Positions 22,701 to 32,586 of a stretch of DNA of 64,000 bases are shown piece by piece (the first letter of the stretch is position 1; every line of letters starts with the position of its first letter). The position numbers were made by a program, and so were the translations under genes. A model generated the notes under the pieces. It searched no databases. It was given only the letters and a program-made list of their open reading frames with translations, and was not told the DNA's origin. The DNA lies in assembly GCA_965248995.1 (NCBI GenBank), contig CBDFKY010000006.1, positions 101,729 through 165,728 on the forward strand, read 5' to 3'. This DNA comes from Rickettsiales bacterium. GTDB lineage: Bacteria; Pseudomonadota; Alphaproteobacteria; Rickettsiales; UBA998.

Positions 22701-23117
22701 GCGCTGAATTTGCTGCGCGACGATTTCAGCCCGGAAGCGAAACTGATCCGCGCCGATATCTACTGGGACAACAAGGACTGGGACAACGTCGCCAAGTCGG
22801 TCGAGGATATCATGGCCAGCCGTAAGGATATCACGGCGCCGCTGAATGATGAGGAAACGCAGGCACTGCTCAAGATGGCGGTGGCATATACCTACCGGCA
22901 CGAGACCGACCAGCTGCAGTACCTGCGGGATTATTTCCTGCCGCTGGTCAAGGACAAGCAGCGGAAAGACACGCTGGATTTCATCACCTCCGGTATCGAT
23001 CCCGTCAACCGTAACACCATCGAGCGCCTAAGCGCGGAAATGGGCAAGATGAAAGGGTTTCTGGATAATTACAAGGTGAGCCTGAGTAAGGAAGGGCTTA
23101 GCAGCGTGATTGATTGA
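19749..23117 (+). CDS. large secreted TPR-repeat protein with proline-rich linker
   Basis: ATG at 19749 gives a signal-like N-terminus (LLVSCAMLACGAGIAMPAPAAAA). A Pro/Ala/Lys-rich spacer covers about aa 170-330. The C-terminal half is rich in TPR-like helical repeats. Confidence 0.8.
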   Translation: MATLPSALFRQRLLVSCAMLACGAGIAMPAPAAAANMAAQLRKDFARLTLNGADGAKMKPSANGRDVIIEFNQPVPVTIDGITQNLKPYILNARQSPDQRQVILTMQDDYPIRSFISGTTSGVDILFKGRPKPERVVTDKTPLPSTTHLNPSKGVDVKDSILTTYKGGKNSVFSTQPSNPALKVAETSAVPSVPLLTKQPVQTPSSAPRPEPKAPKVITTKAPGVEKGSRKKESILQTKPVAKAEPKQTITALGKQIAAIPIPVKKPEMQESVKTAQAAPPVLPENTPIPAPAAPRANPLPEAIPVVPEPTLSTREEKEQAAQARISALMNSHPLVVGLKGGPVDAQLFFPFNERTAAASFTLGHNLYVVFNSKRQIDIKNLTTILPRYLTSVQQLPSEKGTVLRFVTDGEVYTTANLTGNGYEWVVDASRRPKIPKITTLPNVVSAPPLPAHVELEMVQMGDVITVIDSVSGDDVDVVPGYEGNHGVFPERILPDATVLRTGQGMAYLPTRPDVRLMKLRSGLRLSVPGGLAVSKNLAALPADAALADQQQSFTFYPYSQWKAADNTDFYAKERELFADISTADSKKAPLLRMKLAELYLSEGMHMEALGVLDIIHQDTPDVYDDYQLSALAGAANFMIGRFDAAAQNFTHPTVKDEEEAKMWQRMLEVLDGAGKNFDYFTYNQHYIRFYPPDMRRRIALLAADNALAQGKIEAVQKIFAGLAQDKLTDSLEGYKQYMLGRIYAEAGKFDKAEEKLKPLIDNPEDRFLRARAAFTLATSKYKAGLIDRPALIAALEPLRYVWRGDAFELNLLNLLGELYANNGQYLDALRAWNDAVTYYPDTAVARDASGRMAAAFVSLFNEGKANNLTPLSALALYYEFRDLTPLGRPGDVMIQHLADRLAGVDLLDRAASLLQHQVTYRLEKEERSRVGARLALIYLLNREPDKTLETLELTGYGDNGADLNRKRNHLAALAQAKLGNWQRALNLLRDDFSPEAKLIRADIYWDNKDWDNVAKSVEDIMASRKDITAPLNDEETQALLKMAVAYTYRHETDQLQYLRDYFLPLVKDKQRKDTLDFITSGIDPVNRNTIERLSAEMGKMKGFLDNYKVSLSKEGLSSVID

Positions 23118-23148
23118 AAGCTGTAAATCCTGCTTTGGTTCATTCGTC

Positions 23149-24054
23149 ATGTATTTTTCACAAGAAGATATTTTACAGTTCAAAGAAGGGTGGATTCTTA
23201 TGAATCACCAATACGAGCAGCTCAAGTTTTCATGGTCATGGGCTCAATTTCAAACAGAAAAAGGGAAAGAATACGCTCTGCATGGATTCTCTAGAAGAAT
23301 AAGTACGCTCAAAAGATGCATTGACAATATCTTCGCTATCTTTCCGCCGGAAAAGCGTGAAAAATTGAATAGCGAAGAAATGAAAGACGTGGAAATCAAT
23401 CTGCAAGCGTTCTTCCTAAACATATTCGGCTGTCTGGATAATTTGATATGGGTATGGGTATTTGAGAAGAACGTAACTGATAAAAAAGGAAACTTTCTCG
23501 GAAGCGTGGATCGTAACAGGGCGTTGACGTATAGACATAAGGTTGCTTATCCGGATTTGAGCAAACAAAATGTTGATCAGTTTGTTTACAATTCCCTGCC
23601 TGATAGTTTGCAGGAAGAGGTTGCAAAAACCCAGACTTGGTTTCAGGCGCTTAAGATATTTCGGGATTCTTTAGCCCACCGCGTTCCTCTCTACGTTCCC
23701 AAGGTACATACGCCGGAGACGCAAGAACGGGAACGGCAACTGATGGCCGAGCGCAACTTTTTATATCAGGAAATAGAGTCGCTCAATGCGGCGTGGCGTG
23801 AAACATGCTCGCAAAATTTGTTCAGCGGCGCAATAGGAAAGGAAGCGATTGAAGCACATAATCTTTTGCTTGATCCAAAACTTGACCGTTTGGAGCAAAT
23901 GAGAAGTGAGTTGGATACCACCGCTAACAACGGATATGCGATGTTCGCTTCATACAACGAATTTTCAAGAGGCATACAATTTCATGACCAATTATTTTCT
24001 TCGTTCGCCACTATTCATCTGTTAGCTACCAACTTTCTAAAAGAGATGGCCTAA
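23149..24054 (+). CDS. hypothetical protein with HEPN-like Rx4H motif (AT-rich islet)
   Basis: About 301 aa from the ATG at 23149. Helical protein. FRDSLAHR contains R-x4-H. AT-rich. Confidence 0.55.
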   Translation: MYFSQEDILQFKEGWILMNHQYEQLKFSWSWAQFQTEKGKEYALHGFSRRISTLKRCIDNIFAIFPPEKREKLNSEEMKDVEINLQAFFLNIFGCLDNLIWVWVFEKNVTDKKGNFLGSVDRNRALTYRHKVAYPDLSKQNVDQFVYNSLPDSLQEEVAKTQTWFQALKIFRDSLAHRVPLYVPKVHTPETQERERQLMAERNFLYQEIESLNAAWRETCSQNLFSGAIGKEAIEAHNLLLDPKLDRLEQMRSELDTTANNGYAMFASYNEFSRGIQFHDQLFSSFATIHLLATNFLKEMA

Positions 24055-24056
24055 TT

Positions 24057-24395
24057 TTGTACTTCCTGATCAAAACCTTTCTCACCGCACTGATCGTGGC
24101 GGGCACTTCCGAACTAGCGCGGCGTTCCACCCTGTTCGCGGCGGCGGTCGTATCCCTGCCGCTCACATCCATTCTGGCGTTCATCTGGTTATATCACGAT
24201 ACCGGGGACAAGCATAAGGTGGCGGAATTGTCCACCTCGATTTTCTGGCTGGTCATTCCCTCTTTGTTGTTCTTTCTGGCATTTCCCTGGCTGATCAAAA
24301 CGGGGCTCGGGTTCGCACCCGCCCTTCTTAGCGCCTGCGTTTTGATGGCGGCGGGGTATGCTGCATTCCTGTATTGTATGAAAACACATCCATGA
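24057..24395 (+). CDS. DUF3147-like small membrane protein
   Basis: 112 aa, four hydrophobic helices, TTG start. N-terminus MYFLIKTFLTALIVAGTSELARRS. Confidence 0.7.
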   Translation: MYFLIKTFLTALIVAGTSELARRSTLFAAAVVSLPLTSILAFIWLYHDTGDKHKVAELSTSIFWLVIPSLLFFLAFPWLIKTGLGFAPALLSACVLMAAGYAAFLYCMKTHP

Positions 24396-24417
24396 CCGCC
24401 ACTGAAACCGTTTCGCC
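24336..24417. repeat. ~82-bp junction repeat, copy A (intact DUF3147 3' end plus orphan ddpX-like start)
   Basis: Aligns with 25696-25777 at roughly four positions in five, by eye. The core GGCGGCGGGGTATGCTGC and CCATGACC are identical. Confidence 0.85.
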
Positions 24418-24420
24418 GAT

Positions 24421-24500
24421 CAATGAATCAGCAGGTTATCTTTCAGTACAGTATCCGAAAGATTCATGGTTCAAATATCTCCGGCATAAATTCAAACTTT
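24421..24500 (-). pseudogene. relic of a related toxin 3' end plus immunity 5' end
   Basis: 24464-24496 matches 24975-25007 (TCATGGTTCAAATATCTCCGG[C/T]ATAAATTCAAA). The minus strand reads ...KFEFMPEIFEP* and then an overlapping ATG giving MNLSDTVLKDNLLIH*. Compare DDFEFIPEIFEP* and MKQTQKLYIDNLLTYL in the intact pair. Confidence 0.7.
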
Positions 24501-24574
24501 ATTTCTCTTTTATAAAATCATATCCTAGGAAGGTTTGCGCTCAATTCCGGACATAGCACAGCCCTTTTTACGGG

Positions 24575-24979
24575 TTACTGTCCAGCTAACACGAATCTGA
24601 TTTCCGGCCCGGTTTTTAACCGGTCTTTACTCTGCAAAATCATATGGAGGGCTTGTAACGCTTTATTCCGAATATATTGCATCTGCGGGGTATCAATGAA
24701 CATTCTATCCGGCATATCCTGTTTGGTGACATCAATAAGGTCTGATAATTCTTTAATCGCTTGGTCGGCCTGCGCATCGAAGATGGCCCATCCCTCGTTC
24801 ATCGCATCGCCAAGCCCGGTATCATCGAATACCATGCACACGCTTTCCGTATAGGAAATACACATGTCGCCTTGTTTGGCTCCCATTTCCCGCCATACCC
24901 GTTTTTGATAGTCATAGTCCGCCAAGTATGACAAGTAAGTAAGAAGATTGTCGATATATAATTTTTGTGTCTGTTTCAT
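24575..24979 (-). CDS. putative immunity protein of the cassette
   Basis: 134 aa, acidic. Its start overlaps the stop of the upstream gene (ATGA). No family recognised. Confidence 0.6.
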   Translation of the reverse strand: MKQTQKLYIDNLLTYLSYLADYDYQKRVWREMGAKQGDMCISYTESVCMVFDDTGLGDAMNEGWAIFDAQADQAIKELSDLIDVTKQDMPDRMFIDTPQMQYIRNKALQALHMILQSKDRLKTGPEIRFVLAGQ

Positions 24980-25617
24980 GGTTCAAATATCTCCGGTATA
25001 AATTCAAAATCATCGATGGGAATATGCGTCTCTTCCGGGCCTTTCCCCATTTTACCCGCTTTGTCCAGCCACTGGCCATTTTTCTTCCAGCGCACATAAG
25101 GCCCTTGTGAAATAGGGTATTCACTGTCAGGGTTGCCTTCCATCGTTCTGACTTCGTTATGTTTATTATAAGCGTCCGTATATCTGGTTCCTTTATCATT
25201 CTTTGCAGGATTTGTCATCCAATGATCGGGGATACCGTCCGGTTTAGGCAAGTCGGAATTCGCCGGATGGATGTCCCCCGTATCGTCCATAATCATGCCG
25301 GGATCATCACCGGCATCGCCCAACTCCGTGCCGGAATCATCGGCATGGAGCACGCCGGTGCCTGAGGCGTTGCCGCCTCCGCTTGTCCATTGTCCGCCGC
25401 CGTGGCCGCCCGCCGGAACGCGGGGTTGATCGGGATCGTACTTATACCCCAGCGTCGCTTCGATGGCCTGCAATCGCGATTCTGCCTGTTGCACTTCATG
25501 ATAAAGACGGGCGAGGACCGTTTTTTGTTCCGGCGGGTCCGGGGTATGCGCACGGTGCAGATGCGCATAATGACGACGGTTCGCTTCCAGTATCTTTTGC
25601 AGATTATCGTGATGCAT
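24976..25617 (-). CDS. putative polymorphic-toxin-like protein
   Basis: 213 aa. Helical N-terminus, Gly-rich linker PRVPAGGHGGGQWTSGGG, acidic spacer, then a basic C-terminal ~100 aa (GTRYTDAYNKHNEVR...PYVRWKKNGQWLDKAGK...ETHIPIDDF). Confidence 0.6.
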   Translation of the reverse strand: MHHDNLQKILEANRRHYAHLHRAHTPDPPEQKTVLARLYHEVQQAESRLQAIEATLGYKYDPDQPRVPAGGHGGGQWTSGGGNASGTGVLHADDSGTELGDAGDDPGMIMDDTGDIHPANSDLPKPDGIPDHWMTNPAKNDKGTRYTDAYNKHNEVRTMEGNPDSEYPISQGPYVRWKKNGQWLDKAGKMGKGPEETHIPIDDFEFIPEIFEP

Positions 25618-25695
25618 CCGTACTTCCTGAAAAAAATACCTCTATCGCGGCACGGTCATGTGCCGGAAGGGACGGTTTTCGCGCGCATCAACGCT

Positions 25696-25777
25696 TGCGT
25701 TTTGAGGGCGGCGGGGTATGCTGCGTTTCCGTATCGTATGAAACCGCACCCATGACCCTCGTTGAAATCAGCCCGCC
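25696..25777. repeat. ~82-bp junction repeat, copy B (relic DUF3147 3' end plus real ddpX start)
   Basis: Translates as ...ACVLRAAGYAAFPYRMKPHP*, against ...ACVLMAAGYAAFLYCMKTHP* in the intact gene. Confidence 0.85.
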
Positions 25778-26333
25778 GGACTATCCCGTCCTGATCGATA
25801 TCGCCTACGCCACCGCGAGGAATTTCACCGGTGCCCCGGTCTATGCCCGCCCCGGCTGCTACCTGCATGAAGGGGCGGCGGACTGCCTGAAGCAGGCGAT
25901 CTATTATGCCGCCGAGATCGGGTACCGTTTCAAGGTTTTCGACGCGTACCGTCCGGCGGAAGCGCAGTATATTTTGTGGGAACATACGCCGGACCCCAAT
26001 TTTCTCGCCCATCCGGAGCGGGGGTCGCCTCATTCACGCGGGGTGGCGGTGGATCTCACCCTGATCGACGCGGCGGGAAATGAGCTGGACATGGGAACGC
26101 CGTTCGACAGTTTCGTGCATCTCTCGCATCACGGCGCTTCGGGGATTTCACCGCAGGCCGCCCGTAACCGGCTGATGCTGCTCGGTATCATGACTTCCGC
26201 CGGGTTCGATTTCTACCGTAATGAATGGTGGCATTACCAGTTGTTCAACAGCCGAAATTATCCGCTGATCTATGATCGCGATACGCATCTCGGCATGATG
26301 AAGCCGGATCCCGCGCAGAGCCGTTCCGCCTGA
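25752..26333 (+). CDS. ddpX: D-alanyl-D-alanine dipeptidase (VanX/DdpX family)
   Basis: 193 aa from the internal ATG of listed ORF 25383..26333. FDAYRP, SPHSRGVAVDLTL and WWHY motifs. Confidence 0.88.
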   Translation: MTLVEISPPDYPVLIDIAYATARNFTGAPVYARPGCYLHEGAADCLKQAIYYAAEIGYRFKVFDAYRPAEAQYILWEHTPDPNFLAHPERGSPHSRGVAVDLTLIDAAGNELDMGTPFDSFVHLSHHGASGISPQAARNRLMLLGIMTSAGFDFYRNEWWHYQLFNSRNYPLIYDRDTHLGMMKPDPAQSRSA

Positions 26334-26398: not shown

Positions 26399-28777
26399 TT
26401 AAGCCTGGCGTGAGATGTTTTCCGTCTGATTTTCCTGCTGCCTGGTCAGCCTGTCACGCCAGGAAACCGTTTTCACCAGCCGGTCACGTATCGTTCCCTT
26501 TGCCGCTTCAAGGGTGGAGATCACCTCGATGCCATAAGTTTCCATGACGTCCGTATTCAGGCTGCGGTCAGCGTTCATCAGGCCATAGGTCTGGAGAATA
26601 CCGTCGAATATGCCGGTAGGCTGGAGGGTGAGGCCTCCGGTCTCATGTGAACGTGGTTGCATGATTTCCCGGTTGTAGAGAATGATTTTCCCCTGACGTT
26701 CGGGCGTGCCGTCGCTGTACGGACTGTTGTCGTTGGCGGCTGGCGCTTGCCGTCTTTCTTCCATGACCTGTTTGAATGCGTGAACGATCTCTTCGTCGGT
26801 TCCGATGGCGCCCGGGAAAAATACTTTGGTGCCGGTCGACATCAGCCCGTCAAGCCGGCGCACGCGGTTGCCCGTATCCTGATACAGCGTAGCGGCAGGC
26901 CACTGGCGGTTGGGACTCTCCATGTCGATCAGCGGCTGGGTGCTGTAGGCGTAGAACATGTCGCGCGGAATGTGGCCGAGGTCCGCCAGCTTGTTGACCA
27001 GGCCGGGATGCTGCAGAATCAGTTCTTCCGCAGCAAGCCGGAACAGCACCTCCCTCTCCGAGGATTCGAGCGTACGCATGGCGCTGCTGTTTTCTTTCAA
27101 CCGGTCGAGATGAAAGCGGATGAAACCGGTATGGGTGGCGCCCATCGAGCCTTCCACCTGTCCGCCGCCCGTGACGATCCGTATCCCCTGCGATGCCAGG
27201 AAGTGGCCGAACGCTTCCGCCTCCTCCAGATCCTGCCTATTATTGTTATGATGACCGCCCGCCACCAGTACCGAGAGCGTCCCGTCATCCGGAATCAGGT
27301 CAAGCGACCGGGAAGGGTCTGTGTCCTCGGTAGGGGCAGGGGCGTCGTCGCTCCGGATGATCACGCTGCCGAGGTTGTCCACCTCCTGATGAAGGAGGTG
27401 TTGCAGCGCTTCATCCGACTCCGCCACCAGAAACGGAAATTCTCCCATGAAACGTCCCGTTTGGAATCCGTGCCGGAACACTTCCAGCGTATGGCGGAAC
27501 TGGCCGCTGCGATTATCCAGGATCACGGGCGTGCCCATCGAGAGCGGGTCGGTCAGTACGCTTACCCCGATGTAATCGGCGAGCAGCAGGTTCGGATCGT
27601 AGATCAGCCCGTCCTTCTCAACGACCGGCTCAGGACGCAGCACGATGATGTCCGATCCGTTCAGCAGGCGCCTGCCAGGATGGTTTCGCAGTTCGTCCCG
27701 CGTCGGGATGGAGGCGATCCGGAAGTCCTTTCCGGCGATGCCGGAAAGCAGGGAGGTGGTCGCTTCCGGTAGTGTCCGCTCCTCTCCTTCGAATTCGGAA
27801 GGCGAGACATACGCGATATGAATTTCCTGATGCTGCTGCGTCTGCGGCTGCACCCCGAGCCGGTCCTGCAGCCATTCGGCGCATTGGCGGCGGGCAAAGG
27901 AAAACGGCAGTGTCGTGCTGTGGGTGGAGAAAGACCGCTCCCGCAACTGAGCAAAACTTTCCGGTCGGTCCACCGTCTGGCCGTCTGGAATCTGTACGGA
28001 ATCCGTATTGAGCGCCATTCCTTCCGGCAGGTTTTCGATCAGCCGGTGGAATTCCTTCAGGCTGATGATGTCGCCGGATGCGTCGAAATGCTTGGTGAAC
28101 ACATGATTCTCCAAGTTTTCTCCCCGGATGCCGAACGCTACCTGAATGTCCGTCCGGTAGCGCAGCTCCCGCATTCCGATGCTCTCAGAGGCGGCGTACA
28201 CCACTTCCATCAACTCGTTGAACCCTCCCGGCAAATATTCCTGAAAAGGTTTCAGGTTCGGGCCGGGAAAAGAATCGGTGATATGGTTGAAAAGCCATGC
28301 CTTGTCTTCCGGCCGGAAACGCTCGGCCAGCAGCTCGGTCACCTTATCCAGAAACGGTTTCTTCTCCGCGTCGGTCAGGATAACTTCCCAGCCGGAATCT
28401 TCCGTCATGCCCACCAGCATGGTCGCTTCCGCCTCCTGCTCCGTCATGCCGCTGCCCTGAAGGCGGGCGCGGATGGAGCGTTCCCGTTCAGTTAGGGTCC
28501 GGGTCAGCGCATTTACCTTCAGCAGCGCGTGTCGTGCGTAGTCTCCTTCTTTTTCAGGGATATATCCGGGGGTGATGCCCAGCGCGCCCGTGTGGGTGAA
28601 GATTCCGTCGATACCTTTTTTCCCGGATTTCTCCCCATTATCCAGCGCATTGAACAAAGTCGCATATTTGCTGCGCTTGTCGGCAGAGGAGGTGCCTAGG
28701 ATAAAGGCAGGATTTTTTCCTTCAAGCAGGCTGAAAAATTCTTTCTCGCTGAGGGGATGCATCGCGGGCGTCGACAT
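26399..28777 (-). CDS. multidomain protein with tandem LOG/TIGR00730-like Rossmann modules and an uncharacterised N-terminal domain
   Basis: 792 aa from the ATG at 28777 (MSTPAMHPL...). The C-terminal module has VLVAGGHH...IRIVTGGGQVEGSMGA and FFPGAIGTDEEI (a PGGxGTxxE variant). The middle module has a LOG-like tail (GTPVILDNRSGQF...FLVAESDEALQHL). The N-terminal ~250 aa weakly resembles Ham1/ITPase. Confidence 0.7.
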   Translation of the reverse strand: MSTPAMHPLSEKEFFSLLEGKNPAFILGTSSADKRSKYATLFNALDNGEKSGKKGIDGIFTHTGALGITPGYIPEKEGDYARHALLKVNALTRTLTERERSIRARLQGSGMTEQEAEATMLVGMTEDSGWEVILTDAEKKPFLDKVTELLAERFRPEDKAWLFNHITDSFPGPNLKPFQEYLPGGFNELMEVVYAASESIGMRELRYRTDIQVAFGIRGENLENHVFTKHFDASGDIISLKEFHRLIENLPEGMALNTDSVQIPDGQTVDRPESFAQLRERSFSTHSTTLPFSFARRQCAEWLQDRLGVQPQTQQHQEIHIAYVSPSEFEGEERTLPEATTSLLSGIAGKDFRIASIPTRDELRNHPGRRLLNGSDIIVLRPEPVVEKDGLIYDPNLLLADYIGVSVLTDPLSMGTPVILDNRSGQFRHTLEVFRHGFQTGRFMGEFPFLVAESDEALQHLLHQEVDNLGSVIIRSDDAPAPTEDTDPSRSLDLIPDDGTLSVLVAGGHHNNNRQDLEEAEAFGHFLASQGIRIVTGGGQVEGSMGATHTGFIRFHLDRLKENSSAMRTLESSEREVLFRLAAEELILQHPGLVNKLADLGHIPRDMFYAYSTQPLIDMESPNRQWPAATLYQDTGNRVRRLDGLMSTGTKVFFPGAIGTDEEIVHAFKQVMEERRQAPAANDNSPYSDGTPERQGKIILYNREIMQPRSHETGGLTLQPTGIFDGILQTYGLMNADRSLNTDVMETYGIEVISTLEAAKGTIRDRLVKTVSWRDRLTRQQENQTENISRQA

Positions 28778-28922
28778 ACGGAATCCTGAGTTAAGCCGCG
28801 TTAATATATAAAGAGGATTGCATGTGTGCAATGCGAATGTTTTACGACGCCCAACTTTTCTCTTCCGGAATTCGAGATCCTGTTTCTTTATAAATGCCGA
28901 ACAACAGGAAGAGGAATAGAGC

Positions 28923-31900
28923 ATGGCATCCATCGTACTCGGTGCGGCAGGCGCGGCGGCAGGGGCAAGCGTACCCATCTTCGGCGCGACGCTGGGGCGG
29001 GCGCTTGGAAGATCGCTGGGCGTGGCGGTGGACCATGCGTTTTCCGGCACGTCCGTGCGCCATGTCGACGGCGCACGGCTGGCCGATCTTTCCGTGCAGG
29101 TCTCCACCCTACGGCAAGATGATTCCGAACCTGTACGGAACGATGCGACTGGCCGGGAATATCATCTGGTCGACGCCGATCAAGGAAACGCGTACCACGA
29201 CGTCCGCCCACTCCGGCGGTGGCAAAGGCGCGGGCGGCGGGGGCACCAAAACCACCACGACGACCTACAGCTATACCGTGTCGCTGGCGATCGCCCTATG
29301 TACCGGCGAGATCAGCGAGATCATCCGCGTGTGGGCGGATGCGAAACTGCTGGACCGCTCTATGGGGACTTACCGCCTGTATAAAGGCGATGAAACCCAG
29401 CTGCCCGATCCGCTGATGGAAGCGGTGGAAGGGGTGGGCAAGATACCGGCTTACCGCGGTCTCGCCTATCTCGTGATCGAGGATTTCCCGCTCGCCGATT
29501 ACGGCAACCGTATTCCCAACTTCACGTTCGAGGTCAAACGTCCGCTCAGGCTGCCCGATTATCAGGGCCAGACCACGGAGGAAATGGTCACGGCGATCAC
29601 CCTGATCCCCGGCGCCGGGGAATTCGTGTATGATACCGTCCGCCAGACCAAAGTGCAGGGGGAGGCGACAGGTACCGGTTTCGCGGAGAGCGCGTTCAGG
29701 CAGCCGATCAATTACCATACCCCGGAAGAGGGAACGAACGCGAGCGTGGCGCTCGACCAGCTGGCCGGCAACTGTCCGAACCTCGAATGGGTGTCCGTGG
29801 TGGTCACTTGGTTCGGTGACAGCATGGACGCGGGCGTCTGCACCATCCTGCCCGCCGTGGAATACCGGGATGGGGCGATGACTGATCCGAACAGCTGGTC
29901 AGTCGCGGGCTATAGCCGCGATACCGCACGCGTGATGACGATCATCGACGGCAGCCCGCGTTACGGCGGCACGCCGGATGACGGATCGGTGCTGCGCCTG
30001 CTGGCCGACCTGCGGGCCCGCGGGTATAAGATCATGTTCTATCCGCTGTTCTTCATGGATGTGGACGACAAGCCCTGGCGCGGGCGAGTGACGGGCAGCG
30101 CCGGCGACGTGGCGTCATTTTTCACGCGTACCCACGGGTATGACGCGTTCATCACCTATTATGCGAATCTGGTGAAGGACAAGGTGGACGCGTTCGTGAT
30201 CGGCTCGGAGCTGATCGGGCTTACCCGTGTCAGTAGCAGCGCGGGAGTTTATCCCGCTGTGAGCGCGCTGGTCTCCCTGGCAGCCAGTGTGCAGAGCGTG
30301 ATGGGTACGGCCACCAAACTCACCTACGCCGCCGACTGGTCGGAATACCATCATACCGACGGCGGATGGTATAACCTCGACCCGCTCTGGGCTTCCGCCA
30401 ATATCGACGCGATCGGTATCGATGCATATTTCCCGCTGACATCCGCGCCGCAGACCGAACTGGGGTACGGGATCGACCCGGTAGTCGCCGGTTGGGATAG
30501 CGGCGAGGGACATGATTATTATTATACGGACGCGGAGCGTACCGTCACGGCACCACTCGGTGCGGCGTATGCGTGGAAAAACCTGGAATGGTTCTGGAAC
30601 CAACCGCACACCAACCCGAACGGAGCGACGACAGGCTGGGTGCCGCAATCCAAAAAAATCTGGTTCACCGAGTTCGGCTTTCCAAGCGTGGACGGCGCGA
30701 CCAACCAGCCCAACGTGTTTTACGATCCGACCAGTTCGGAGAGTTTTTTCCCGCGCTTCTCCTCCGGAATGGTGGATATACGGGCGCAGCGGACCGGCAT
30801 AACGGGTACGCTCGCCAAGTGGAAAGGGTCGAGCATGGTGGAGCGTCTGTTTCTCTGGACGTGGGACGCCCGGCCTTATCCGTATTTTCCGGATCTCCGT
30901 TCCGTCTGGGCAGACGGGGGCGTGTGGGCGACCGGCCACTGGGTGACGGGGAAATTCGGTGTCTCGGGGCTCGCGGCGATCGTGCGGGATCTTTGCTTTC
31001 AGGCGGGTCTGGGCGATGAGCAGGTCGACGTCAGCCGCCTGACAGACCGGGTGGACGGCTATGCGTTGACGCGGCGGGATACGGCGCGGGCGTCACTGGA
31101 AGAATTGATGAGCGCGTACTTCTTCGATGCGGTGGAGCGCAGCGGGGTCCTTACCTTCCTGCCGCGGGCCGGGGCGTCGGTGGCGGATATTTCCGTGACC
31201 GATCTGGTACGCCCGGAAGGAAAGCAGGTGCTCGCCAAGGCCCGCCGTCCCGAACTGGAACTGCCCGGAGCGGTGGAAGTCCTCACGCTCGACCGGCTGC
31301 GCAATTACCAGACTTCCACCCGCCGCGCCGTGCGGCAGGTGACGGTCAGCCGCACCACGGAGACACTCACCCTGCCGCTGGTGATGTCAGGGGCGGAAGC
31401 GGAAGCGATCGCGGCCCGGCATCTCTACTTGGCGTGGCTGGAGCGGGTGGCGTATGTCTTCACGCTGGACGCCGCTTACAGCAGGCTGGAACCTGCCGAC
31501 GTGGTGACGCTGGTGGAGGAAAATACCGCCACGCGCCTGCGGATTACCCGCCTCCTGCAGGAAAAGGGGCAGGTACATGTGGAAGCGGTGGAAGAAGACA
31601 TCACGCTGTATGACGTGGTAGCGCCCGACGATACCGTCCCGGTCACCCCTACGGTCGCCACCGTCCCCGCTACTGCCGTGATACTGCTGGACCTGCCCGC
31701 GTTTCCGGGCGACGCTCCGACCGACGCCACGCTGCGGGTCGCCTGCATAAGCGAGGCGGCGGGATGGAACGGGGCCGCGCTCTATCGCGGCGAGGACGGG
31801 GGAGAATACAGCCGTATCGCCGATGCCGGGGATGCGGCGGTGATCGGTACCGTGACACTTGCGCCCGCGAATTTTGCCGGCGGTAACCGACTGGATGAAG

Positions 31901-32586
31901 CCTCGTTTTTCGAAGTGCTGTTGCGGGGGGAGGGGTCGCTGTCCGGCGTACCCCTGCAGGGATTGCTGAACGGGGCCAACGCCGCCGTCATGGGAAATGA
32001 GATCCTGCAATTCAGGGACGCCGTACTGCTCTCCCCTCATAAGTACCGTTTAAGCGGTTTGCTGCGCGGCCGGCTCGGCACGGAAGAAGCGACAGCGGGT
32101 CATGCGAGTGGGGAACGTTTCATACTGCTCAGCCCGGCACTGACGGAAATCGCCGTCGCGCCGCAACTGTTCGGTCTACCGCGAAATTATAAGGCGGTGA
32201 GCATCGGTGCGACGCTCGCTTCTGCCCCTGCCAGTTCTTTTATGTATACCGCCAAGGCGCTGCAGCCTTACGCGCCGGTGCGCGGCGCCGTTTCGGGTGC
32301 GGTCGGGAGTGATATCACGTTGACCTGGATCCGGCGTGACCGGCTGTACGGTCAGTGGCGGGATGGAGTCGATGCCGGATTGAGCGAGGTTTCGGAGCAA
32401 TATACGGTAGAGGTGATGCACGGCGCTAACTTGCTGCGTACCCTGACCGTCTCCATGCCGGTTGCGCTCTATGGTGCGGCGATGCAGGCAACCGACGGAA
32501 TAAGCGCCGGATCCACGCTGTCTTTTCGCATCTATCAGATGTCCGCGCTGGCGGGGCGCGGGAAACCGCTGGTGATCACGCTGTAA
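28923..32586 (+). pseudogene. GTA ORFg15-type host-specificity/tail protein, frameshifted
   Basis: The family-typical N-terminus MASIVLGAAGAAAGA...DLSVQVST is in the frame starting at 28923. The rest (YGKMIPNLYGTMRLAGNIIWSTPIKE...NRIPNFTFEV...) is in the +1 frame of listed ORF 28894..32586. The switch occurs at the C-run 29107-29109. Confidence 0.75.

Follow-up and report, generated by a model that had tools for sequence, protein, structure and literature searches.

A probable polymorphic-toxin/immunity cassette in the DUF3147-ddpX junction of a Rickettsiales bacterium

A 64,000-nt stretch of the genome of a Rickettsiales bacterium (UBA998; assembly GCA_965248995.1, contig CBDFKY010000006.1, positions 101,729-165,728 of the forward strand), referred to here as the window, carries a 1,273-bp insert at positions 24419-25691, within the junction between a gene for a DUF3147-family membrane protein and ddpX. 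The insert includes two intact genes, for proteins of 213 and 134 aa. Its anatomy, the reuse of its modules, its immunity pairing and the context of its linker together indicate that it is likely to be a polymorphic-toxin/immunity cassette of the phage-head-associated class that was acquired horizontally and is lodged in the ATGA overlap of a conserved DUF3147-ddpX pair. An earlier note, made from the letters of the window alone, had proposed a toxin/immunity pair inserted in a formerly contiguous junction, and reuse of the C-terminal domain, linkage to an immunity gene and an intact junction in relatives all bear this out. Toxicity, neutralisation, activity and delivery are predictions from sequence. 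The cassette would have landed in the stop/start overlap, leaving an 87-nt duplication of the junction. The toxin would be made up of a helical N-terminal domain of about 58 aa, a linker, an acidic spacer and a beta-rich toxin domain of about 93 aa, and the translationally coupled 134-aa protein would be its cognate immunity protein. The immunity protein would shield the producer, and the toxin would act on cells that do not have it.

The toxin domain and its immunity partner

As the earlier note had described, the two genes lie on the minus strand and are coupled by an ATGA overlap. Their parts, in the direction of transcription, are as follows.

25618-25691 (-): leader of the putative toxin gene, extending to the right end of the insert; AGGAAG precedes the ATG by 7 nt
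24976-25617 (-): putative toxin open reading frame (ORF), 213 aa, overlapping the immunity ORF by 4 nt
25444-25617 (-): helical N-terminal domain of about 58 aa (MHHDNLQKILEAN...RLQAIEATLGY)
25372-25443 (-): linker motif KYDPDQPRVPAGGHGGGQWTSGGG, residues 59-82
25258-25371 (-): acidic, Gly/Asp-rich low-complexity spacer, residues 83-120, variable and gapped in the alignment
24979-25257 (-): beta-rich C-terminal domain, residues 121-213
24575-24979 (-): putative immunity gene, 134 aa, its ATG overlapping the toxin stop

The 213-aa protein had no match in Pfam (E<=1), NCBIfam, PHROGs or PADLOC, and neither a signal peptide nor a secretion-domain match was found for it. A profile search with the last ~95 residues recovered 1,076 representative proteins at E<=1e-3. 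Among the 148 relatives listed, which range from 70 to 2,234 aa, the domain match in every case stops no more than about 32 residues short of the C-terminus. The architectures found upstream of the domain were RHS_repeat, TEN_YD-shell, PT-HINT, Phage_Mu_F and Phage_portal_3; the longest carriers were Rhs/YD-shell proteins, and other relatives matched PT-HINT or Phage_Mu_F above the gathering score. A mobile C-terminal module, placed behind differing N-terminal trafficking regions, is a mark of polymorphic toxin systems in the sense of Zhang et al. (2012; PMC3482391), and this domain has that distribution. Full relatives of the window protein were scarcer. A word-indexed search returned only two (P0002 and P0003), homologs of the N-terminal domain (residues 1-58) were found in P0018, P0019 and P0020, and a tblastn search of cultured phage genomes with the toxin returned nothing.

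Structure prediction of the C-terminal part, which the earlier note had proposed, gave a confident, beta-rich AlphaFold model from an alignment of 29 sequences (predicted local distance difference test score, pLDDT, 90.1; predicted template modelling score, pTM, 0.80). When this model was compared with known structures using Foldseek, no match was found in the PDB (best E 0.39, TM score <0.35) or in BFVD (best E 0.8). Four polar residues, R157, Y174, D185 and H198, are invariant in the same alignment, which includes the window toxin, and as a low-confidence guess such a set in a small beta domain would be compatible with a metal-independent nuclease. A suspected resemblance to the RNase domain of colicin E3 was dropped because neither Pfam nor Foldseek supported it. 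By sequence, the one relative with a solved structure was a PDB chain of 95 aa labelled 'Transposase' (8owu_B), which matched the toxin-domain profile over chain residues 25-94, with an E-value that fell from 0.23 when the profile held 3 sequences to 3.6e-4 when it held 29. This chain may be a mislabelled structure of the toxin domain. It was absent from the Foldseek results for the confident model and no paper on it was found, so it was not used as a functional guide.

The anatomy of the 213-aa protein given in the earlier note was partly upheld. The helical N-terminus and the linker PRVPAGGHGGGQWTSGGG are present, but the C-terminal domain, which had been called basic, is acidic, with an isoelectric point (pI) of 5.1 and 12 Lys and Arg residues versus 17 Asp and Glu residues. 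Residues 61-120 have a pI of 4.05.

The 134-aa protein was correctly described earlier as acidic (pI 4.8). Its AlphaFold model is all-helical (pLDDT 66), and Foldseek returned only generic four-helix bundles. Near full-length matches were obtained to DUF7945 (PF25656; E = 4e-5, 24.3 bits, cut-off 27) and to SCO4402_fam (NF047838; E = 3e-9, 37.1 bits, cut-off 50), and several relatives of the protein likewise match these families over nearly their full length, all with scores below the cut-offs. No paper naming DUF7945 or SCO4402 was found in a literature search, so these families give no functional information.

The position of the gene was more informative. In each of the 19 other contigs read, a helical immunity gene of the same family was located immediately downstream of the toxin domain. 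Loci with this arrangement were L001/L002, L003, L004 (where the immunity gene is present in two tandem copies), L166, L167/L168 and all 13 of 13 metagenome loci. In the Rhs locus L166 the immunity gene overlaps the toxin stop, and its product was matched to the family with an hhalign probability of 99% (E = 1.9e-18); the immunity proteins of the 13 metagenome loci were recovered with E-values of 3e-47 to 1.8e-5 using a hidden Markov model. An immunity gene directly after the toxin is a further mark of polymorphic toxin systems, seen here both in the window and in its relatives. We regard this linkage as the decisive evidence for the predicted immunity role of the 134-aa protein.

The insert also contains the remains of a second unit, which was overlooked in the earlier note. 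A blastn comparison revealed a second repeat of 34 nt (24463-24496 versus 24975-25008; 97% identity, E = 5e-11). Read on the minus strand, the region holds the final ten codons of a toxin gene and, after the ATGA overlap, 15 codons that begin another immunity gene and resemble the live one at its start (MKQTQKLYIDNLLTY). This fragment directly abuts the upstream copy of the junction duplication described below (copy A). No similarity to the toxin gene was detected by blastn beyond 24496, and the GC content over 24396-24574 is 0.41. The pieces are as follows.

24497-24574 (no strand): AT-rich spacer between the stop of the immunity gene and the toxin stub
24464-24496 (-): 3'-end stub of a toxin gene (FEFMPEIFEP, then stop), containing the conserved DNA block TTTGAATTTATGCCGGAGATATTT
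24420-24467 (-): 5' remnant of a further immunity gene (MNLSDTVLKDNLLIH, then stop), truncated at the left end of the insert

Arrays of toxin-domain fragments, genes for MuF tails joined to toxin domains, and two or three tandem immunity paralogs were found in two other loci, L173 (1-2528) and L179 (3221-6096). These are classic orphan-cassette arrays for this toxin family, and the window stub is a structure of the same type. Stand-alone cassettes of toxin tip and immunity gene are known from polymorphic toxin systems, and the stub at 24420-24496 and the arrays in L173 and L179 represent this form.

The end of the toxin gene is conserved at the DNA level. The block TTTGAATTTATNCCGGAGATATTT, which encodes the last toxin residues (FEF[IM]PEIF), occurs at 24473-24496 and 24985-25008 in the window, at about 298-325 in L004 and at about 6708-6735 in L167. 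These four occurrences, in the window gene, the window stub, L004 and L167, are nearly identical across unrelated metagenomes, although protein identity between the domains is only about 50-60%. The block may be a recombination handle for cassette exchange, or it may be a translational-coupling element.

The domain and its partner define a large family of toxin domains, with more than 1,000 clusters at 50% identity and no Pfam model, together with a dedicated immunity family. Neither has a Foldseek match beyond the generic helical bundles, and the two together are a target for the discovery of a new toxic activity.

The DUF3147-ddpX junction and its duplication

The insert is bracketed by two copies of the junction.

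24057-24395 (+): live DUF3147-family membrane protein gene, 112 aa, whose last 64 nt form the upstream part of copy A
24332-24418 (+): repeat copy A, made up of the DUF3147 3' end (24332-24395) and, from the ATG at 24392 to 24418, an orphan stub resembling the ddpX start
25692-25778 (+): repeat copy B, made up of a decayed DUF3147 3'-end stub (25692-25755, ending in ACVLRAAGYAAFPYRMKPHP and a stop) and the live ddpX start
25752-26333 (+): live ddpX (D-Ala-D-Ala dipeptidase, 193 aa)

The product of the DUF3147 gene matched the NCBIfam model PRK09272.1-2 (NF006749) with 120.5 bits against a cut-off of 119; PF28289 is present in its homologs, some of which NCBI names DUF3147. The ddpX product matched Peptidase_M15 (PF01427; E = 8e-38) and NF007557 (249.5 bits against a cut-off of 176).

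A duplication of about 82 bp, with about four positions in five alike, had been claimed for this locus. Pairwise alignment of 24332-24418 with 25692-25778 gave a direct repeat of 87 nt with 79% identity and no gaps. Its core, the first 66 nt from the DUF3147 3' end through ATGACC, is 86.4% identical (blastn within the window, E = 8.5e-18). The last 21 nt, which are ddpX-like, match at 12 of 21 positions (binomial p ~0.002-0.009). The composition assigned earlier to the two copies was also seen in the sequence: copy A joins the live DUF3147 end to an orphan ATGACC stub, and copy B joins a relic, whose translation ends in AAGYAAFPYRMKPHP and a stop, to the true ddpX start at 25752.

The earlier note had predicted that DUF3147 and ddpX would be adjacent without the insert in related genomes. 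This was the case in L161, L164 and L165, where the two genes are contiguous and share the same 4-nt ATGA overlap. L161 is syntenic with the window, with homologs of the upstream 1,144-aa tetratricopeptide repeat (TPR) gene (79% identity), DUF3147 (70%) and ddpX (85%), a 110-aa ORF between the TPR and DUF3147 genes, and a homolog of the downstream 902-aa gene further on; neither a toxin nor an immunity gene was found in L161 at this locus. In L164 and L165 the overlapping pair is in a different neighbourhood. In a five-way alignment, copy A tracks the relatives through the whole DUF3147 end and copy B joins at the repeat boundary, while the live ddpX start tracks the relatives from ATGACC onward. 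Together with the uninterrupted relatives, this alignment places the insert at 24419-25691, in a junction that is contiguous elsewhere. Among 80 genome loci with a ddpX gene, which at 62-74% identity were too distant, none had DUF3147 upstream, and exact look-ups of the window proteins matched no other contig.

In a further locus, L085 (1-1345; TPR C-terminus 89% and ddpX 86% identical), ddpX begins 59 nt after the TPR gene with no DUF3147 between them, and L165, which is from the same sample, carries the DUF3147-ddpX pair in another context. Either the pair is mobile or DUF3147 has been lost in L085. The space after the TPR gene contains nothing in L085, the 110-aa ORF in L161 and a 314-aa AT-rich ORF in the window, and it is thus a variable spot among these relatives.

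Base composition was examined using the GC content at third codon positions (GC3). This is 0.70-0.76 in the flanking host genes and 0.68 in DUF3147, and it is 0.45-0.54 in the cassette overall; the cassette is therefore foreign and DUF3147 host-like. The earlier description of the insert as AT-richer holds in that its GC3 is lower than that of the host genes, but the value is not uniform along it. Within the toxin gene it is 0.53 for residues 1-58, 0.67 for residues 59-120 and 0.45 for the C-terminal domain, and the immunity gene has 0.52. A host-like composition of the N-terminal half of the toxin gene, which would have implied a recent swap of the toxin domain, was considered and dropped; residues 1-58 have the low value and only the Gly/Pro-rich linker is GC-rich.

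L161 and L164 served as outgroups to polarise the changes in the two repeat copies. At least five derived states are common to A and B relative to both, which makes the copies sister sequences. Four changes could be assigned to the live copy A, three of them synonymous and one non-synonymous, and all three that could be assigned to the copy B stub were non-synonymous (M>R, L>P and T>P) and towards G/C. Decay of the stubs was unequal, with differences at 9/23 positions in the ddpX-like stub of copy A versus 9/64 in the DUF3147 stub of copy B (Fisher p = 0.017).

Two origins for the duplication were considered. In the first, a donor-derived and a recipient-derived version of the locus would have been brought together by homology-facilitated illegitimate recombination. 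The sister relationship of the copies, the distribution of their changes and the unequal decay of the stubs are all compatible with this origin; the counts are small, no donor sequence was found, and the chances appear to be roughly even. In the second, the target site would have been duplicated in situ, through a staggered break with fill-in or end-joining capture of a 1.27-kb fragment, and both redundant stubs would then have decayed. In favour of this origin, the two copies are closest to one another, and the exclusively non-synonymous, G/C-ward changes of the copy B stub are those expected of a dead stub in a GC-rich genome. A search at the insert for an integrase, a transposase, a nearby tRNA gene or terminal inverted repeats also found none. 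On the other hand, the unequal decay of the stubs is awkward for a plain duplication followed by equal decay, the predominance of synonymous changes in copy A (3/4) fits divergence of two functional genes before the event, and 87 nt is far above the usual footprints of transposition. Duplication in situ is a serious candidate that we place a little short of an even chance. By either route, the locus is a clean natural case of a 1.3-kb cassette caught where two genes overlap by 4 nt and accompanied by a long and diverged duplication, and it should be useful for examining the spread of cassettes without a recombinase.

Among the ORFs of the window as a whole, taken without mapping to positions, one matched DDE_Tnp_IS1595 (an ISXO2-like transposase, E = 1.9e-39) and two matched TadE-like proteins.

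Linker motif, phage heads and related systems

The linker, in the form YDPDQPRVPAG-x4-GGQWT, was confirmed in 110 stretches, from 75 IMG/VR loci and 85 distinct ORFs. As Y(D/S)PDQPRVPAGxxxGGQWTSGGG it is shared with P0002-P0015; a dozen proteins have nothing else in common with the window protein and carry other C-terminal ends, for example Colicin_E5 and RNAse_A_bac. The domains found after it include RNAse_A_bac, ADP-ribosyltransferases and Zeta toxin, amongst others. The earlier note had tentatively connected similar linkers with MuF-type toxin fusions. This is partly right: the C-terminal domain is fused to Phage_Mu_F in P0026, P0030, L173 and L179, but the linker itself mostly follows portal domains. 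Among 28 non-redundant N-terminal regions of at least 150 aa preceding it, 15 matched Phage_portal, and Portal_Mu, P23-45 portal, MuF and S78 prohead protease were found once each. Short forms of the linker (n = 30) lie behind terminase (8), portal (5) and capsid (4) genes.

Homologs with the same toxin domain also occur in head modules. P0003 is encoded in a head-tail cluster resembling those of HK97 and gene transfer agents (GTA), with the portal gene on one side and the S78 protease/capsid genes on the other, and P0002 follows a portal C-terminus. In L177, a Phage_portal_3 protein ends in this toxin domain, with the variant linker DPGQPRSPDGKWTTGG between the two, and is followed by the immunity gene. 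The conserved linker ties diverse toxin domains to the portal and head modules of phages of the alphaproteobacterial type, and extends the idea of MuF toxins to HK97/GTA-like heads that have no MuF. Literature searches for the linker sequence found nothing relevant, and searches for GTA together with polymorphic toxins found nothing directly relevant.

In P0019, three tandem 54-nt units (L167 6226-6391), each of the G(R/N/I)FT(F/L).P..GG type, stand in place of the single PDQPRVPAG...GGQWT, so the linker motif can be repeated.

MuF toxins are head-packaged polymorphic toxins of temperate phages (PMC3482391, PMC5576092), and muf genes sit right after the portal gene (Jamet et al. 2017, PMC5576092). 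The window protein resembles them in being short and unstalked, with a toxin domain that varies at the C-terminus and a small immunity ORF behind it, in sharing an identical C-terminal domain family with Phage_Mu_F proteins, and in having homologs (P0003 and P0002) in the post-portal slot. Unlike them, it has no MuF domain (PF04233 or PF06152; Pfam, E<=1), the post-portal position is seen only in these homologs, and its helical domain and PDQPRVPAG...GGQWT linker are unmentioned in PMC3482391 and PMC5576092. Effector domains fused to portal proteins have also been noted (PMC5512222, PMC9503650), and were read as effectors injected into the host of the phage, with no immunity partner described. 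The joining of Phage_portal to RNase, ADP-ribosyltransferase and Zeta toxin domains by the linker, and the fusion in L177, are of this kind. However, an immunity gene always follows here, and the window protein has no portal domain in Pfam.

The resemblance to Rhs and contact-dependent inhibition (CDI) loci with orphan cassettes is in the toxin end. The domain terminates Rhs proteins of up to 2,048 aa (e.g. P0046), with an immunity gene overlapping the toxin stop, and the downstream stub in the window keeps the conserved toxin 3' end and immunity start, as in orphan arrays. The window protein differs in having no RHS/YD repeats, PAAR, VgrG, haemagglutinin repeats or VENN/PT-HINT, and at 213 aa it is too short for a stalked toxin. 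As to an N-terminal trafficking domain, the other component expected of a polymorphic toxin, no Pfam, NCBIfam or PHROG match was found; portal and MuF fusions contain the same linker, but the N-terminal domain of the window type was not seen in viral contigs. What is new here is an uncharacterised toxin domain with its immunity family, a short N-terminal domain with a portal-type linker in a protein that has neither a MuF nor a portal domain, and a stand-alone chromosomal cassette.

By analogy with the proposal made for MuF toxins, the linker and N-terminal domain might attach the toxin to the head of a phage or GTA whose genes lie in another part of the genome, a suggestion we make tentatively and hold to be somewhat more doubtful than not. 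A more specific version, in which the N-terminal domain and the PDQPRVPAG...GGQWT linker would form a head-loading tag for packing chromosomally encoded toxins into GTA or prophage capsids encoded elsewhere, is unlikely. If it were true, a protein toxin would reach non-kin together with DNA in the GTA-like particles of this alphaproteobacterium, and the cassette would be a detachable, exchangeable 'warhead'.

Several observations count against the interpretation of the insert as a toxin/immunity cassette of the phage-head-associated class. The DUF7945 and SCO4402 scores of the 134-aa protein fall below the curated cut-offs, no fold or family in Pfam or Foldseek points to an activity for the C-terminal domain, and an acidic domain is unusual for a toxin that targets nucleic acids. 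The N-terminal domain of the window type was absent from the 85 distinct IMG/VR ORFs with the linker motif. No portal, capsid, terminase or MuF gene was found in the 64-kb window, nor was a second cassette. The closest full-length homolog, P0019, is also part of a stand-alone pair, between rluA-like and ATP12 genes and beside an rpoA/rplQ cluster, and the head-packaging route for this subfamily therefore rests on analogy. Taken together, P0019 and the window indicate that stand-alone chromosomal cassettes are a recurring form of the subfamily.

The stand-alone arrangement would also suit an addiction or abortive-infection module, similar to a toxin-antitoxin pair and never exported, that stabilises an island or kills infected cells; the 134-aa protein would then restrain a toxin that remains in its producer. 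The pair has no delivery genes nearby either in the window or in L167/L168, its neighbour at this variable position is a further AT-rich accessory ORF, and the failure to find a signal peptide or secretion domain is in keeping with a protein that stays in the cell. However, the toxin is encoded first and the larger, helical partner second, and no DNA-binding antitoxin domain was found. In type II toxin-antitoxin modules the antitoxin has a DNA-binding domain and is usually encoded first, and the toxin has a known toxin-antitoxin fold; here no HTH, RHH or AbrB domain and no toxin-antitoxin family was matched. The same C-terminal domain also ends Rhs, PT-HINT, MuF and portal proteins, which are architectures of export and delivery, and an N-terminal region of about 120 residues with a conserved linker would be left without a role. 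We consider such a module improbable.

Least probable of all, and in our view very unlikely, is that a prophage head module has decayed here and left only the pair behind, inert, its toxin no longer expressed or delivered. The portal-protease/capsid setting of the homologs P0003 and P0002 and the adjoining stubs of further cassette pieces would be expected of such a remnant, as would the result that no significant promoter or terminator consensus was found at the insert. Both ORFs are nevertheless intact, every invariant column of the 29-sequence alignment is retained, and a good Shine-Dalgarno sequence and the ATGA coupling have been kept. The insert is moreover only 1.27 kb in length, with sharp ends in a duplicated host junction rather than ragged edges. 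An acquired cassette encoding a polymorphic toxin and its immunity protein is the interpretation we prefer.

A scan of the pooled ORFs of the window returned matches to GTA_TIM (PF13547) and Phage-tail_3 (PF13550). Their presumed source is the 1,230-aa ORF at 28894-32586 (+), the only one large enough. This ORF, about 3 kb from the cassette, would presumably encode a tail or host-specificity protein of the GTA g15 type and would be the sole phage-like gene in the vicinity; it has no further head or tail genes beside it.

Neighbouring genes

The 314-aa AT-rich ORF between the TPR gene and DUF3147 (23110-24054, +) has a GC content of 0.416 and a GC3 of 0.45. It had no match in Pfam, NCBIfam or the PDB. 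Homologs with 25-36% identity, annotated as 'hypothetical protein', were found on rhizobial and other alphaproteobacterial plasmids, and the sequence RDSLAH (Rx4H) within it is a candidate HEPN-like motif. Downstream of ddpX, the 902-aa protein encoded at 26399-29107 (-) showed a weak SLOG/LOG-like match (TIGR00730, LDcluster4) at about residues 612-667, and its gene is conserved beside ddpX in both L161 and L085.

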